DNA from: a virus | Taxonomy: Duplodnaviria > Heunggongvirae > Uroviricota > Caudoviricetes | Reading direction: 5' to 3' (one strand) | Virus record (IMG/VR): IMGVR_UViG_2711768000_000002 | Length of the DNA stretch: 7,721 nt | Shown: positions 576 to 5,255 of the stretch, one piece after another | Layout: each line of letters opens with the position of its first letter | How positions within the stretch are numbered: position 1 is the first letter of the stretch | Made by a program: the position numbers and the translations under genes | The notes under the pieces: model-generated | Databases searched by the model: none | Told to the model about the DNA's origin: nothing | What the model saw: only the letters and a program-made list of their open reading frames with translations

Positions 576-875
576 CAGCGTGATGCTGATGCACTCGATG
601 CTAAATACACGAAGGAGTTAGCTGATGCGAAAGCTGAAAATGATGCTCTTCGGCGCAAGCTTGATAATGGTGGTCGGGTGCTCGTCAAAGGAAAATGCCC
701 TGTGCCATCCTCAGCCGAAACCTCCAGCGCCTCCGGCATGGGCAATGATGCCACCGTCGAACTCTCTCCAGTTGCTGGACGAAACGTTCTCGGTATCCGG
801 GACGGAATCATCAGCGACCAGACAGCATTGAGAATGCTTCAGGAGTACATCAGGATCCAATGCCTTGGGGGGTAG
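576..875 (+). CDS. Rz: Rz-type i-spanin, C-terminal portion (5' end lies in the N-run)
   Basis: Frame-0 translation after the gap, QRDADALDAKYTKELADAKAENDALRRKL..., closely matches the lambda Rz motif (..RDVAALDAKYTKELADAKAENDALR..) as I recall it. Stop TAG at 873-875. An embedded +1 frame lipoprotein gene (Rz1) is the hallmark arrangement. Confidence 0.85.
   Translation, partial: QRDADALDAKYTKELADAKAENDALRRKLDNGGRVLVKGKCPVPSSAETSSASGMGNDATVELSPVAGRNVLGIRDGIISDQTALRMLQEYIRIQCLGG
625..831 (+). CDS. Rz1: Rz1-type o-spanin outer-membrane lipoprotein, embedded in the +1 frame of Rz
   Basis: MRKLKMMLFGASLIMVVGCSSKENALCHPQPKPPAPPAWAMMPP...: signal peptide with lipobox (VVGC), then a proline-rich segment (PKPPAPPAW) resembling lambda Rz1. 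AAGGAG at 611-616 lies 8 nt upstream of the ATG. The gene sits wholly inside Rz in another frame. Confidence 0.8.
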   Translation: MRKLKMMLFGASLIMVVGCSSKENALCHPQPKPPAPPAWAMMPPSNSLQLLDETFSVSGTESSATRQH

Positions 876-963: not shown

Positions 964-1473
964 TTAGCTAAAAAAAGGCAACACGAAGCTAAAACTACCA
1001 ACATAAAGTGCTGACCAGCTAGCAGCTGAAATCAGACTCACTGTATACACTTTCACTGGATGAAGTTGCAACATTCCTGCCACCAAAGGAGCAATATAAC
1101 GCAGCACGGCGATAAAGCGCGAAGTGAAAAGTATTGACACAGAGTTATTTTGCAACTGAAGGCGAACCCGTTCTATTGTATTGGAACGGCTTGATATTAT
1201 ACATGCAAGTTGAGGGATATGCCCAATTATTATACCAAGATGGTAATTAACGATAGTACCGCACCATGCGCCACTCATGACCGTGATTCCAGCTTCCCAT
1301 GGTGAAAGAGTCGTCTTGCTGACTGTAATTACAGTGGCCATCATAATTGATGCTGGTGGCAATATCGCCGAAATGAGTAAAGTGGATTTTGTGAACGCTA
1401 TTATAAAAAGAAGCCCCCATAGGCGATATGGATGAAGTACAAAATAGTTCATCAAAGCATTTATCCACTCCAT
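964..1473 (-). CDS. DedA-family inner membrane protein (SNARE-associated/DedA-like), AT-rich moron on the opposite strand
   Basis: Translation contains GAWCGTIVNYHLGIIIG and FTSRFIAVLRYIAPLVAGM, resembling the conserved DedA motifs (E. coli DedA GDAVNYTIGRLFG and ARFVPIVRTFAPFVAGM as I recall), plus several hydrophobic helices. The ORF track starts at a TTG (1476); I prefer the adjacent ATG (1471-1473), which has AAGGAAAG upstream on the - strand. Sampled 60-bp blocks are ~37% GC here versus ~62% in the head genes. Confidence 0.7.
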   Translation of the reverse strand: MEWINALMNYFVLHPYRLWGLLFIIAFTKSTLLISAILPPASIMMATVITVSKTTLSPWEAGITVMSGAWCGTIVNYHLGIIIGHIPQLACIISSRSNTIERVRLQLQNNSVSILFTSRFIAVLRYIAPLVAGMLQLHPVKVYTVSLISAASWSALYVGSFSFVLPFFS

Positions 1474-1526
1474 CAATGTCTTTCCTTCTGTGAATTTTTC
1501 TTTGCTATTTAACCGTGATACGACTT

Positions 1527-1556
1527 AATTTAGGCTTAAACACCTTACATTTACAA
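1527..1556 (-). promoter_or_regulatory. Candidate sigma70-like promoter for the DedA-family gene (-35 TTGTAA, about 18-bp spacer, -10 TAAATT on the - strand)
   Basis: Hexamers read by eye from the reverse complement of 1527-1556, about 55-85 bp upstream of the ATG; no other support. Confidence 0.2.
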
Positions 1557-1670
1557 GGTACTCCTGTGGGGGGCCCTGCCACGGAGCGTCGCAGGAGTGA
1601 GTGATGAGGAAGAATTAAAGCAACCTATTGTGACAGGCAGCGATAACAGTAAATCACAGGAAGCATAATC

Positions 1671-2435
1671 ATGGCAAAACCGGACTGGGAGGCCATCGAA
1701 TCGGCATACCGGGCCGGAGTCCTTAGCCTCCGTGATATAGGCGAGAAATACGGCGTTACAGAAGGGGCTATCAGGAAGAGGGCCAAAAAGCTTGGTTGGG
1801 CACGCAGTGGCGGTACGCAGGTTTGCAAAAATGGTACGCAAAAAAGGAAAGTGCGTACCAGCAGAAAGCCTGCCATTACTGGCCTTACACAAAAAAGTAC
1901 GCAACTAAAAACAGAATCTACACCGGATACGAAACCGATACGCGGAATGCGTACCGATCCCCCGACTAACCCATTCCAACCCGGTAACCAGCAGGCATTA
2001 AAACACGGTGGTTATGCCCGTCGCCTTCTGCTCAAAGATGAGGTGATAGAGGACGCTAAAGCGTTGACGCTCGAGGACGAATTATTTCGCCTTCGTGCTA
2101 ACAACCTTGTCGCTGCAGAGAATATTGGTCGGTGGTTGGTGTCGCTGGAAGATGCTAATGGGGACCAGGAAAGGAAGATGCTGATTGAAAATATCAGCGC
2201 CGCCGAGAAAGCAATGATGCGCAATACAGTTCGTATTGAGTCCATCGTTGGCACGCTTGCGACGGTAGGAAAAATATTTGCTGATACAGCCTACCGCAAG
2301 GCCGCCACTGATAAGGTGTCTCTGGAGGCTGATCGTCTTCGCCGTGATGCAGGTATTGATGATGGCAATGGAGAGCGTGACCTCAATGACTTCTACTCTG
2401 ACATCCAAACCGACGCTGAATCCGGCTTTACGTAG
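1671..2435 (+). CDS. Phage terminase small subunit (TerS) with N-terminal HTH and an unusually long C-terminal region
   Basis: AGGAAG 6 nt upstream of ATG 1671. The N-terminus MAKPDWEAIESAYRAGVLSLRDIGEKYGVTEGAIRKRAKKLGW is an HTH-like DNA-binding segment, followed by NPFQPGNQQALKHGGY, a motif I associate with small terminase subunits. It sits immediately upstream of the large terminase. Stop TAG at 2433-2435. Confidence 0.75.
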   Translation: MAKPDWEAIESAYRAGVLSLRDIGEKYGVTEGAIRKRAKKLGWARSGGTQVCKNGTQKRKVRTSRKPAITGLTQKSTQLKTESTPDTKPIRGMRTDPPTNPFQPGNQQALKHGGYARRLLLKDEVIEDAKALTLEDELFRLRANNLVAAENIGRWLVSLEDANGDQERKMLIENISAAEKAMMRNTVRIESIVGTLATVGKIFADTAYRKAATDKVSLEADRLRRDAGIDDGNGERDLNDFYSDIQTDAESGFT

Positions 2436-3789
2436 TTTCTGGACTATGCGGGCACGTAACAAAGTGCTTTATGGTGGTCGGTCATCGTCAAAATCATGGG
2501 ATGCCGCTGGCATTGCCATATTTCTGTCGAATAAATACACCCTGCGTTTTTGTTGTGCCCGTCAGATCCAGAATAAAATCGAAGAGTCGGTGTATACCCT
2601 GCTCAAAATTCAGATAGACAGGTTTGGTCTGCGGCACCGTTTCCGTATTCTGAACAACAAAATCATTAACCGGGTTACTGGCTCGGAATTTGTTTTTTAT
2701 GGATTATGGCGCAACATCGAAGAAATTAAGTCACTGGAGGGGATCGATGTGTTGTGGCTGGAAGAAGCCCACGCACTGACGGAATACCAGTGGAAAATTC
2801 TGGAGCCAACGATCCGTAAAGAGGGTTCGGAATGCTGGTTCATATTCAACCCCGGACTTGTTACTGATTTCGTCTGGCGCAACTTCGTTGTTGATCCGCC
2901 CGAAGGCACTCTCATCCGCAAAATTAACTATGACGAAAATCCGTTTCTGTCTGACACCATGCTTAAGGTTATCGACGCGGCGCGACGCCGTGATCCGGAT
3001 GGTTTTAAACATGTGTATGAGGGCGTTCCGGAGTCTGATGATGATGCGGCAATCATCAAACTGTCTTGGATAGAAGCCGCAGTGGATGCGCACAAAACGT
3101 TAAATTTCGAACCCAGTGGAAGAAAGCGTATTGGCTTTGACGTGGCTGACAGTGGTACAGATAAGTGCGCTAACGTTTACCGTCACGGATCCGTTGTTTT
3201 CTGGGCCGACGAATGGAAGGCCAAAGAAGATGAATTACTGAAGAGCTGCCAGCGTACTTATCAGGCGGCGCTGGAGCGTGAAGCAGATATTGTTTACGAC
3301 TCTATCGGTGTTGGTGCGTCTGCCGGTGCTAAATTCTCTGAAATTAACGCTGACCGGAAGAGCGAGAACGCATACGCGCGACGTGTGAATTACCAGAGGT
3401 TTAACGCCGGTGCTGGTGTGCATGAGCCAGATGACGAGTACAACGGCATCCCCAACAAAGACTTTTTCGCAAATCTTAAGGCTCAGGCATGGTGGCTGGT
3501 GGCTGACCGTTTCAGAAATACGTTTAACGCCATTAACAACGGAGAACAGTATCCTGTGGATGAGCTGATCAGCATAGATTCTCGTTGTCCGTTGCTTGAA
3601 AAGCTGAAACTGGAACTGACAACACCTCATCGTGATTTCGACCGTAACGGACGTGTGATGGTCGAAAGTAAAAAAGACCTCGCAAAACGCGAGATACCGT
3701 CACCAAACGTTGCTGATGCATTCATTATGGCCTTCGCGCCAATCGATACATCGCTGGATATCTGGGAACAGCTGGGGAGACAGGCCTGA
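2386..3789 (+). CDS. Phage terminase large subunit (TerL; ATPase plus nuclease)
   Basis: Walker A-like LYGGRSSSKSWD near the N-terminus, Walker B-like VLWLEEAH, and an acidic C-terminal nuclease-type region. The ORF is open from 2278; start chosen at ATG 2386 (GGAGAG at 2370-2375) so the TLNPALRSFW segment is retained. ATG 2359/2362/2368 and 2446 are alternatives. Stop TGA at 3787-3789 overlaps the portal ATG (tgATG). Confidence 0.85.
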   Translation: MTSTLTSKPTLNPALRSFWTMRARNKVLYGGRSSSKSWDAAGIAIFLSNKYTLRFCCARQIQNKIEESVYTLLKIQIDRFGLRHRFRILNNKIINRVTGSEFVFYGLWRNIEEIKSLEGIDVLWLEEAHALTEYQWKILEPTIRKEGSECWFIFNPGLVTDFVWRNFVVDPPEGTLIRKINYDENPFLSDTMLKVIDAARRRDPDGFKHVYEGVPESDDDAAIIKLSWIEAAVDAHKTLNFEPSGRKRIGFDVADSGTDKCANVYRHGSVVFWADEWKAKEDELLKSCQRTYQAALEREADIVYDSIGVGASAGAKFSEINADRKSENAYARRVNYQRFNAGAGVHEPDDEYNGIPNKDFFANLKAQAWWLVADRFRNTFNAINNGEQYPVDELISIDSRCPLLEKLKLELTTPHRDFDRNGRVMVESKKDLAKREIPSPNVADAFIMAFAPIDTSLDIWEQLGRQA

Positions 3790-5255
3790 TGGCACGAAAC
3801 AAACAAGCCCTGCGGCGAACTGTGCAGGCCACAGCTGATGGTTATGAGAATTTTATTGCCCGCGTAGGGATGCAGACACCTAACCAGCACTCAGCATCCA
3901 CCTACCGGGCTAATTTCACCAGTCGTAACCGCATGCTGGTGGAATGGTCCTATCGTTCATCCTAGATCATCGGCGAAGCAGTCGATGCTATCCCGGATGA
4001 TATGACCCGCAAAGGCATTCGCATCACTTCGGAAATTGATGCAAAAGATCGTGGCATTCTCGAATCACAACTGGATGAGTTGCAAATCTGGGATGCGCTG
4101 AATGACGTGCTGAAATGGTCGCGCCTCTACGGCGGCGCGGTGGGTTTCATCATGATTGAGGGGTAGGCACCAATGACCCCGCTGCGACCCGAAACCATCG
4201 GTAAGGGCAAGTTTAAGGGGATTCTCCCGCTCGACCGCTGGATGGTCGACCCGGCACTGACCCGCCGCATTAAAGATATGGGGCCGGACCTGGGTAAACC
4301 TGAGTTTTACGATGTGGTGACCACAGCAACGGGAATTCCTGCCTGGCGCATTCATCACAGTCGCCTGATTCGCTTTGATGGCGTCACGTTGCCATTTCAG
4401 CAGAAGATGACCGAGAACGAATGGGGAATGTCGGTTGTAGAGCGTATCTGGGATCGTCTTACCGCGTTCGACAGCGCTACTGTCGGCGCGGCGCAGCTGG
4501 TCTACAAGGCGCATTTGCGTACCTACAGCGTGGAGAAGCTACGCGAGCTTATCGCACTTGGTGGTCCTGCGTATGAAGCGTTGCTGAAGAATATCGACCT
4601 GATTCGACAGTTCCAGAGTAATGAAGGCATGACGCTCATGGACTCGCGGGATAAGTTTGAAACCCATCAGTACAGCTTCAGTGGTCTGGATGACATCCTT
4701 TCGCAGTTTGTAGAACAGATTAGTGGCGCTGTTGGTATCCCACTGGTGCGGTTGTTCGGACAGTCCCCGAAAGGATTTTCTACCGGTGATGCAGACCTTG
4801 CCAACTATTACGATCGCATCAGTTCGTTGCAGGAGAGGCGTTTACGTCTTCCGGTGCGGCGGATACTGGACATCATGCATCGTTCGGAACTTGGCAAGCC
4901 GCTGCCGGACGATTTCACGTTTGAGTTTAACCCGCTCTGGCAAATGTCTGATGTCGATCGCTCAACGGTGGCGTTAAACACCACCAACGCAATCAGTACG
5001 GCGCTGGGTGATGGTCTGATGACACTGAAAGCCGCTATGACTGATTTGCGAGAAAATTCTGACGTAACCGGCATCGGGGCATCCATTACCGACGAGGACA
5101 TCGAGAATGCCGAAGATGAAGCGCCGCCCGGCATCGGCGAACCTGATGACGAACCGCAGGAGCCGTCAGGCGGAAATCCGGTATCGAACCAGCCTACGCA
5201 GGATAGCGAGGGCGGTCGGAGACATCGTAAATGGTCGCTACGATGGTTCAAATGA
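3789..5255 (+). pseudogene. Phage portal protein gene interrupted by two in-frame TAG (amber) codons at 3963-3965 and 4164-4166; otherwise a continuous 489-codon frame
   Basis: ATG 3789 with GGGGAGA 8 nt upstream. Frame 0 translates MARNKQALRRTVQATADGYENFIARVGMQTPNQHSASTYRANFTSRNRMLVEWSYRSS*IIGEAVDAIPDDMTRKGIRITSEIDAKDRGILESQLDELQIWDALNDVLKWSRLYGGAVGFIMIEG*APMTPLRPETIGKGK... and continues as the 360-aa ORF 4173-5255. All three segments are in one frame and look coding. Its position between TerL and a MuF-like gene is the canonical portal position. Confidence 0.75.

Follow-up and report, generated by a model that had tools for sequence, protein, structure and literature searches.

What is a gene for a DedA-family membrane protein doing between the lysis and packaging genes of a lambdoid prophage, on the strand opposite to both, and does it serve the bacterium that carries it? 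The question is raised by IMG/VR virus record IMGVR_UViG_2711768000_000002, a stretch of 7,721 nucleotides of Caudoviricetes DNA (the window), in which positions 964 to 1476 encode such a protein on the minus strand. Judged by genomic comparison, the gene is a moron, i.e. a self-contained cargo gene with its own candidate promoter. Its predicted role, in which we have middling confidence, is that of an envelope-stress-regulated lysogenic-conversion gene. The cargo is defined by the following features.

964 to 1476, minus strand: gene for a short DedA/VTT-family membrane protein; an open reading frame (ORF) with Pfam VTT_dom above cut-off, named 'DedA family protein' (WP_011069285.1) by the Prokaryotic Genome Annotation Pipeline (PGAP)
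1487 to 1483, minus strand: Shine-Dalgarno sequence AAGGA, read in the sequence, 6 nt from the TTG and 9 nt from the ATG start
876 to 1665, no strand: whole insert (~790 bp) relative to a related Klebsiella phage; in the MK448230 alignment, the break is at the Rz stop and the restart at the TerS ATG
954 to 1548, no strand: minimal mobile unit, comprising the coding sequence (CDS), 10 bp downstream and 75 bp upstream with box and -10 element, common to an unrelated C. youngae prophage

Read from the TTG at 1476, the ORF encodes 170 residues, and from the ATG at 1473 it encodes 169; the stop codon is TAA (966 to 964). An earlier note on this DNA, made from the letters alone, had described a 169-residue minus-strand frame between Rz/Rz1 and TerS with its own Shine-Dalgarno sequence, and both stand: in 6 of 5426 complete E. 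coli genomes, PGAP gives the identical gene the same limits and the name 'DedA family protein'.

That the gene is an insert emerges from comparison with Klebsiella phage ST16-OXA48phi5.2 (MK448230), which shares Rz and TerS with the window and holds only a 138-nt ORF in the slot between them. Homology breaks at the Rz stop codon and restarts at the TerS ATG, and therefore the ~790 bp in between are inserted. Conversely, only positions 954-1548 of the window aligned by blastn with a Citrobacter youngae prophage (L003; 82% over 595 bp), in which the copy, 78% identical, is likewise on the opposite strand, with lysis genes on one side and packaging genes on the other. That prophage has another backbone: its holins differ, its endolysin is of the GH19 type and its terminase is a lambda-type GpA. 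Occurrence of this 595-bp unit in the same slot and orientation of an unrelated Citrobacter prophage therefore argues for a mobile moron. In addition, viral contig L089 bears a 99% identical cassette beside a different packaging module, and in other phages with the same Rz gene, the slot before the terminase genes is occupied by small genes of unrelated kinds. The survey of the slot proposed earlier thus reveals it as variable.

The base composition of the cargo is also deviant. G+C content is 41.8% in the DedA gene and 42.3% in the insert (876 to 1665), compared to 52.3% in the remaining window and 53-55% in the head genes; at third codon positions (GC3) the DedA gene has 38.2%, i.e. 38% versus 50-61% in the surrounding phage genes, and the G+C fraction in 200-nt windows is 0.39-0.44 at the insert versus 0.50-0.60 outside. 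The AT-richness asserted previously is thus real, but the contrast (42% versus 52%) is about 10 points instead of 25. Taken together, the gene is a discrete insert that is absent from a related phage, present in unrelated backbones and deviant in composition, as expected of a moron. The slot is indeed the one that lambda uses for bor, as had been pointed out, and bor likewise lies on the opposite strand as a single gene with its own expression signals (here predicted) and deviant composition. Unlike the window cargo, an inner-membrane DedA-fold protein with a predicted response-regulator-type promoter, Bor is an outer-membrane lipoprotein, unrelated in sequence.

In a tblastn search of 50,697 deposited phage genomes, the short-DedA subfamily was found in none; distant DedA matches (24-30% identity) came from two Acinetobacter metagenome-phage records, and further distant ones from a 290-kb Salmonella Infantis contig that is filed among the phages and from six 'phage' records that are short, unannotated or incomplete. 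The only PHROG match of the protein was to a family of unknown function (E 3.4e-07). A repeat search of the cassette returned short chance repeats only, and no ends resembling phage attachment (att) sites or insertion sequences (IS) were found.

The origin of the gene is indicated by its chromosomal relatives. A search of 1.84 billion representatives yielded 4761 DedA-like proteins, with only 12 clusters at E<=1e-30; the next-best matches after these, YabI-type DedA proteins and DedA-PAP2-LssY_C fusions, scored ~85 bits versus at least 127 within the subfamily and are ~20-27% identical to the window protein. By these sequence scores, the short-DedA subfamily is small and sharply delimited. Species-representative genomes contained 70 subfamily loci, mostly in non-phage contexts. 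Chromosomal orthologues occur in Kosakonia (72% identity), Citrobacter (57-78%), ~27 Enterobacter species (~50%) and Arsenophonus (~40%), and also in Lelliottia, Huaxiibacter, Morganella and Proteus; the Citrobacter and other chromosomal contexts are non-phage, the C. youngae prophage excepted, and the Kosakonia copies sit between an elongation factor G paralogue and an L,D-transpeptidase gene. These relationships show, as far as homology can, that a lambdoid prophage acquired the gene and its putative promoter from a Citrobacter-, Kosakonia- or Enterobacter-like chromosome, and that at least two or three phage backbones received it by capture, in the slot between lysis and terminase genes. 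Even Arsenophonus endosymbiont genomes of 0.85-0.93 Mb (L063, L077, L082-L085) keep the short DedA gene, and because it persists in such strongly reduced genomes, a housekeeping-grade function of the subfamily can be argued for.

One further copy, on a C. freundii 'plasmid' (pRHBSTW-00902_4, NZ_CP056259.1; L017), was considered as a possible phage-plasmid gene and ruled out, the record being chromosome-like. It is 82 kb long, is filed as a circular plasmid, carries icd, rluE, mnmA, purB and phoPQ, and is probably a chromosomal fragment or a misassembly. Its DedA gene lies beside a DinI gene and next to icd, which we take to be a known prophage attachment region.

Does the protein belong to the DedA family? 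In the profile search that had been suggested, Pfam VTT_dom (PF09335) matched residues 41-161 with 52.4 bits, well above the gathering threshold of 33.9 (E 9.2e-14), and the domain was found in all 21 homologues. Key residues were compared in an alignment with YqjA, YghB, DedA, YabI and YohD of E. coli K-12 and in a wider set of 57 sequences (20 subfamily members, 37 outgroup sequences). R119 and R125 correspond to YqjA R130 and R136 (UptA R112 and R118), a pair that is invariant in the E. coli DedA alignment and kept in 18-20 of the 20 subfamily members and 36 of the 37 outgroup sequences; S42 corresponds to YqjA S52, and W153 to UptA W146. The YqjA-type acidic pair (E39/D51) is lost from the subfamily: all 20 members have Lys (K29 in the window protein) at the E39 position, where 35 of the 37 nearest outgroup sequences have Glu, and all 20 have Ala (A41) at the D51 position. 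The window protein also ends before the last transmembrane (TM) helix of the aligned K-12 proteins. The DedA motifs noticed earlier are therefore present as regards the arginine pair, but the protein is not a canonical DedA, having Lys for Glu, Ala for Asp and one TM helix fewer.

Loss of the acidic pair does not remove the protein from the superfamily, because YabI-type proteins also do without D51. Indeed, YabI-type and fusion proteins resemble the subfamily in their VTT domain, arginine pair and Trp residue and mostly lack an equivalent of YqjA D51, but they keep the Glu (35/37, versus Lys in 20/20), are longer and possess an extra C-terminal TM helix or PAP2 domains. As judged from the alignment, the Lys-for-Glu exchange separates the subfamily from every characterised DedA member. 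In YqjA, E39/D51 and R130/R136 are essential (bioRxiv 10.64898/2026.09.20.752871); in UptA, the arginines bind undecaprenyl phosphate (C55-P) and E32 pairs with R118 (PMC11474028). It is the position of UptA E32, the partner of R118, that is Lys in the subfamily.

An AlphaFold2 model based on the 57-sequence alignment was all-helical, with a predicted local distance difference test score of 86.6 (a model from 13 sequences, at 54.7, was unusable). The helices break at residues 31, 36-40 and 119-121, where hairpins are expected, a pattern that fits the order TM1, hairpin, TM2, amphipathic helices, hairpin, TM3. Sequence and fold searches of the PDB gave no homologue at E<=0.001, and the best viral fold matches were giant-virus VTT proteins, which matched weakly (E 0.4-0.8). 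According to the model, then, this is an inner-membrane protein of DedA/VTT fold with three TM helices and two hairpins, and it represents a separate, short subfamily.

The putative promoter of the gene appears to be of another kind than a housekeeping one: no sigma-70 consensus was detected by a simple scan of the DNA before the DedA gene, but a conserved activator-type box and a candidate -10 element are present.

1512 to 1507, minus strand: candidate -10 hexamer TTAAAT; T[T/C][A/T]AAT recurs, equally far from the start codon, in the copies of Citrobacter, Enterobacter, Lelliottia and Huaxiibacter
1540 to 1524, minus strand: direct-repeat response-regulator box TTTAAG-CCTAA-ATTAAG, with 1 mismatch to the PmrA/BasR box, 11 nt from the -10 hexamer

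The PmrA/BasR box follows the consensus YTTAAK-N5-YTTAAK, and the PhoP box [TG]GTTTA-N5-[TG]GTTTA. When these patterns were applied to E. coli K-12 as controls, the PmrA pattern matched at eptA with 0 mismatches and at arnB with 1, and the PhoP pattern at phoP and mgtA with 0, 12 nt from the -10. The window box scores the same as the arnB box, and its 11-nt spacing is near that of arnB and eptA (~10-13 nt, with their -10 hexamers placed by eye). It is the sole site with at most one mismatch in the window (0.27 expected; p=0.004 in the 120-nt upstream region). A proximal direct repeat located 11-13 nt (mostly 12) before T[T/C][A/T]AAT is kept in Enterobacter, Citrobacter and phage copies. A PhoP half-site, TGTTTA, overlaps the box at 1542 to 1537; a PhoP-box reading of the window copy was rejected in favour of the PmrA-type one, as it has 3 mismatches, matched by 25 such sites in the window, and is not significant. 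In arnB, eptA and acquired genes under PhoP/PmrA control, a direct-repeat box takes the place of the -35 element, and the predicted box of the window copy would do so too, with comparable spacing to the -10. A horizontally acquired gene under such control is that for LmiA, the regulator on O-island 119 of E. coli O157, which is reported to be PhoP-regulated (PMC7667037). We infer with moderate confidence that the window copy is transcribed in the lysogen from this predicted PmrA/PhoP-type, activator-dependent promoter. In contig L089 (~7930-8000), a 1-nt deletion changes the candidate -10 from TTAAAT to TTAATA and opens a longer upstream frame of 192 residues.

The orthologues point to the same regulatory circuits. 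All 22 perfect PhoP boxes in the 1.12 Mb of loci lie ~100 nt upstream of the DedA gene, on its strand, in Enterobacter (0.79 expected by composition); the Enterobacter orthologues thus carry PhoP boxes, whereas the window copy has a PmrA-type box. In Enterobacter (~25 species), Lelliottia and Huaxiibacter, the DedA gene has an MgtE-family gene as its divergently oriented neighbour (L027-L055, ~7600-8000), and in Enterobacter the perfect PhoP box lies inside the intergenic region that mgtE and the DedA gene share. In Arsenophonus (L056-L060), the DedA gene precedes mgtE in tandem; in Morganella (L069-L081), it is convergent with corA at a distance of 10 bp. A report on a colistin-selected mutant of E. 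hormaechei ST89 attributes the mutant to an mgrB deletion and lists 19.6-fold, 23.1-fold and 3.1-fold induction of the genes for MgtE (N5F16_08425), DedA (N5F16_08430) and a short-chain dehydrogenase/reductase (SDR; N5F16_08435), alongside induction of the arn operon (PMC10434160). The E. hormaechei loci that we retrieved show the same order mgtE, DedA gene, SDR gene, and orthology with N5F16_08430 rests on this gene order, not on sequence. The boxes and the mgtE neighbour in Enterobacter, together with the published 23-fold induction, suggest that the chromosomal orthologues belong to the PhoPQ response to low Mg2+ and cationic peptides. The contrast of PhoP boxes in Enterobacter with a PmrA-type box in the phage copy of Shigella/E. 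coli is mirrored by the arn (pbgP) promoter, for which direct PhoP control is described as lost in the E. coli/Shigella/Salmonella lineage and kept in Klebsiella (PMC2565834). A hybrid direct repeat, TATTTAAGAAGTATTTAGT, also occurs upstream of K-12 yfaZ (L109, ~-127 from the start; 2 mismatches to the PhoP box, 1 to the PmrA box), and YfaZ is named in the report on the E. hormaechei mgrB mutant among the most induced envelope genes (PMC10434160).

Based on these results, we suggest that a lambdoid prophage took the gene from an enterobacterial chromosome into the variable lysis-packaging slot, where a near-consensus PmrA/BasR-type box would stand in for the -35 element. The lysogen would then transcribe the gene independently of the phage late operon whenever the PhoPQ/PmrAB (BasSR) envelope-stress circuits are on. 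The protein might take part in carrying an anionic lipid across the inner membrane, the undecaprenyl-phosphate carrier being the likeliest one, and in this way support the remodelling of lipid A and the envelope that these circuits drive. For Shigella/E. coli, it would be a ninth DedA paralogue of an otherwise absent type, amounting to lysogenic conversion of envelope stress tolerance.

Translocation of an anionic lipid such as C55-P is the part of this scheme that we infer with lower confidence, by analogy to characterised relatives. The window protein shares its fold family with the C55-P flippases UptA of B. subtilis and PA4029 of P. aeruginosa and, with UptA, the C55-P-binding arginine pair; it is via these arginines that UptA and PA4029 bind or flip C55-P, and polymyxin resistance depends on PA4029 (PMC11474028, PMC12893004). 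Of the same fold family are the colistin-resistance proteins DbcA of B. thailandensis, DkcA of K. pneumoniae and DedA(Ecl) of Enterobacter, and the short subfamily has its own link to the polymyxin/PhoPQ response in the induction of the Enterobacter orthologue together with the arn operon. None of these five is phage-borne, unlike the window gene. In the nearest outgroup (P0041-P0171, e.g. P0044), many proteins are fusions of 630-730 residues with an N-terminal DedA part, a PAP2 lipid-phosphate phosphatase and LssY_C, and these fusions hint at phosphorylated-lipid substrates for this branch.

Several observations weigh against this proposal. Equivalog cut-offs of NCBIfam were failed both for YqjA/YghB (NF008102, 31 versus 236 bits) and for UptA (NF052604 and NF052605, 19.9 versus 250 and 16.3 versus 300 bits); the protein is, by these scores, not an orthologue of YqjA/YghB or UptA, and a UptA-like mode of action would be by analogy only. 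With Lys at the E32 position, a pairing of the UptA R118-E32 type is impossible in the subfamily, and because the Glu-to-Lys exchange removes this interaction and YqjA requires E39/D51, the transport mechanism or the substrate may differ. A DedA protein is required for colistin heteroresistance of Enterobacter (PMC7771540), but it is not necessarily the short-subfamily paralogue. As regards expression, the PmrA-type match is a single site, and matches of equal quality occur in about one in five shuffled windows; the window copy fits the PhoP consensus poorly and is devoid of the distal perfect PhoP box of Enterobacter. No such box lies upstream of the Kosakonia, Arsenophonus, Morganella and Proteus orthologues, and regulation is therefore not uniform across the subfamily. 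Finally, a terminator scan and folding detected no intrinsic terminator after the DedA gene.

The chromosomal neighbourhoods suggest, as the main rival to lipid translocation, a role in Mg2+ homeostasis, in which the protein works with MgtE/CorA and aids or modulates divalent-cation uptake, so that a lysogen would grow better at low Mg2+. Besides the adjacency to mgtE (~25 Enterobacter species, Lelliottia, Huaxiibacter, Arsenophonus) and corA (Morganella) and the co-induction with mgtE in E. hormaechei (19.6-fold and 23.1-fold; PMC10434160), it can draw on the phenotypes of K. pneumoniae YqjA/YghB, which are rescued by Mg2+/Ca2+ (PMC10846249), and on Xanthomonas XdfA, which is needed for growth at low Mg2+ (PMC10470534). 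The Mg2+ rescue of DedA mutants has, however, been read as an indirect effect on membrane polarisation (PMC10846249), and since the Enterobacter and Arsenophonus mgtE linkages may share ancestry, there may be only about two independent associations. Moreover, the phage cassette comes without an Mg2+ transporter gene, the copies of Kosakonia, Citrobacter, Proteus and the reduced Arsenophonus genomes are not beside one, and Lys in place of an acidic residue makes a cation-binding site less likely. We consider this explanation rather unlikely, though it fares best among the alternatives.

Whether the gene does anything at all has to be judged against the state of the prophage around it. Positions 1-86 of the window are an IS2 terminus that matches, with 100% identity, the end of an IS2 element lying within TerL of E. 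coli FDAARGOS_943 (L001 21960-22045); because the holin gene ends with the 22 nt that follow (87-108), this prophage has an IS2 insertion in its holin gene. The DUF1073 portal gene (3789 to 5255) has in-frame stop codons at 3963-3965 (W59*) and 4164-4166 (Q126*) relative to the intact L001 copy, and both stops recur in three further contigs (L091, L092, L098). The window prophage is dead, and because of this the gene now behaves as a domesticated host gene. Other copies of the prophage have IS2 in TerL, IS600/IS911 insertions or head-gene deletions, or are reduced to the cassette alone between IS elements: in L102 (6598-9876), the cassette and short TerS/Rz fragments are bracketed by inverted IS3-family copies in a composite-transposon-like manner, and in L101 (6427-10461), they are flanked by IS3-family and IS110-like transposase genes. 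Throughout these states the DedA CDS is intact (19/19 loci), so that the disruption envisaged in the earlier note was not encountered, while holin, Rz, TerS, TerL and portal genes are variously IS-hit, deleted or stop-carrying. The 19 loci span at least eight decay states and include three single-residue variants of the DedA protein. The gene is thus retained in decayed prophages. Pairwise ratios of nonsynonymous to synonymous substitution rates (dN/dS) were 0.08-0.33 over all pairs, 0.14-0.24 for the window copy versus homologues and 0.24 between two phage copies; these estimates show the DedA-fold gene to be under purifying selection, as far as such ratios reveal it.

These data bear on a second alternative, that the gene is a functionless passenger, small, harmless and silent (e.g. 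as AT-rich DNA repressed by H-NS), with nothing to offer the lysogen. Every prophage copy examined is defective, and no more than 6 of 5426 complete E. coli genomes have the gene; none of the relatives is as AT-rich as the window copy (GC3 38% versus 41-54%), which also has one extra base between the box half-sites compared to the Citrobacter copies; and all three variants within Shigella/E. coli change amino acids. Intactness in decayed prophages is itself weak evidence for the conversion gene that we propose, because a target of 510 bp is small and IS hits may miss it by chance. On the other hand, the CDS survived in all 19 loci across at least eight decay states, and two of these loci have IS elements within ~200 bp on both sides that spare CDS and promoter; at least 1000 contigs, from S. 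flexneri, S. sonnei, S. dysenteriae and E. coli, encode exactly this protein; the two phage-borne copies differ with a dN/dS of 0.24; and the promoter elements are conserved along with the CDS. A mere passenger seems doubtful to us on these grounds.

A phage-directed function, in which the protein blocks the entry of superinfecting DNA or tunes holin triggering, possibly by heterodimerising with host DedA proteins, would suit an inner-membrane protein that is encoded beside a lysis cassette, in a slot where other phages keep exclusion or conversion genes, and whose relatives dimerise and affect the proton-motive force (bioRxiv 10.64898/2026.09.20.752871; PMC10846249), but we regard it as highly improbable, given that most family members are ordinary chromosomal genes, found also in phage-poor reduced endosymbionts, that the PADLOC defence families gave no match at E<=1, that the subfamily occurs in 0 of 50,697 deposited phage genomes, that the gene persists where lysis genes are destroyed and that its orientation, antisense to the late operon, precludes joint expression with lysis genes. 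Of the roles offered by the earlier note, lysogenic conversion is accordingly favoured, the gene being a chromosomal stress-regulon gene elsewhere, while superinfection exclusion and lysis timing are unlikely.

There is also a broader idea, which we regard as unlikely: the short Lys-for-Glu DedA proteins may form an unrecognised functional class of PhoPQ/PmrAB-controlled partners in Mg2+ limitation, genetically linked to MgtE/CorA and kept even by endosymbionts with 0.9-Mb genomes, with a charge-reversed core (K29, R119 and R125) that would bind a phosphorylated lipid or an anion without proton coupling. Such a class would have been mobilised by phage, rewired from PhoP to PmrA and domesticated as a fixed determinant of cationic-peptide or low-Mg2+ tolerance in Shigella/E. 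coli, an intracellular pathogen.

The genes around the insert are those of the phage. A lysozyme fragment, Rz and the embedded Rz1 precede the DedA gene on the plus strand, and TerS, TerL and head genes follow it.

576 to 875, plus strand: Rz, C-terminal part, the start lying inside the N mask (Pfam Phage_lysis, 72.9 bits)
625 to 831, plus strand: Rz1, embedded in Rz (Pfam Rz1, 75 bits)
1671 to 2435, plus strand: TerS, terminase small subunit (PHROG 370, E 7.5e-95)
2386 to 3789, plus strand: PBSX-type TerL, overlapping TerS by 50 nt (Pfam Terminase_3, TIGR01547; PGAP coordinates transferred from L001)

The mask is a run of 300 N at 276-575, which corresponds to 498 nt in the otherwise 100% identical contig L091 (IMGVR_UViG_2671180821_000008), so that 198 has to be added to window coordinates past the run to obtain those of the real sequence. 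Most of the lysozyme gene and the Rz start fall within the masked part; Rz was reconstructed from L091. An Rfam scan of the whole window found no RNA family at E<=1, and folding of the noncoding flanks (876-965 and 1549-1600, both strands) gave nothing beyond shuffled sequences (z -1.5 to +1.3). Comparison with shuffles also ruled out a GC-rich imperfect hairpin at ~1559-1599 as a terminator. Two related loci (L001 17827-18137, L018 7218-7524) carry four tRNA genes (Ile, Arg, Thr, then Gly or Val) between a Q-like antiterminator region and the lysis genes, and in the related Klebsiella phage, the tRNA genes at this position are those for Asn, Phe, Thr and Arg.

Existing annotation already names the product a DedA family protein, and DedA proteins, morons and stress-regulated acquired genes are all known kinds, to which the gene adds an unusual core substitution and a testable regulatory prediction. 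A search of the accessible literature returned no report of a prophage or Shigella DedA and none on this gene. The host prophage is a decaying one of Shigella/E. coli, and its cargo is a real but fairly ordinary candidate for lysogenic conversion. If silent, it would simply join the annotated accessory genes that dead prophages carry. Evidence is growing that DedA proteins act as flippases of lipid carriers and that polymyxin resistance depends on them, and to our knowledge no DedA structure or mechanism is settled. The short subfamily offers a natural experiment in this respect, with Glu replaced by Lys at a residue that YqjA cannot do without and that matters for the binding of C55-P by UptA. 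If the gene is expressed and functional, a phage-mobilised DedA would constitute a horizontal route for envelope-stress tolerance into Shigella.

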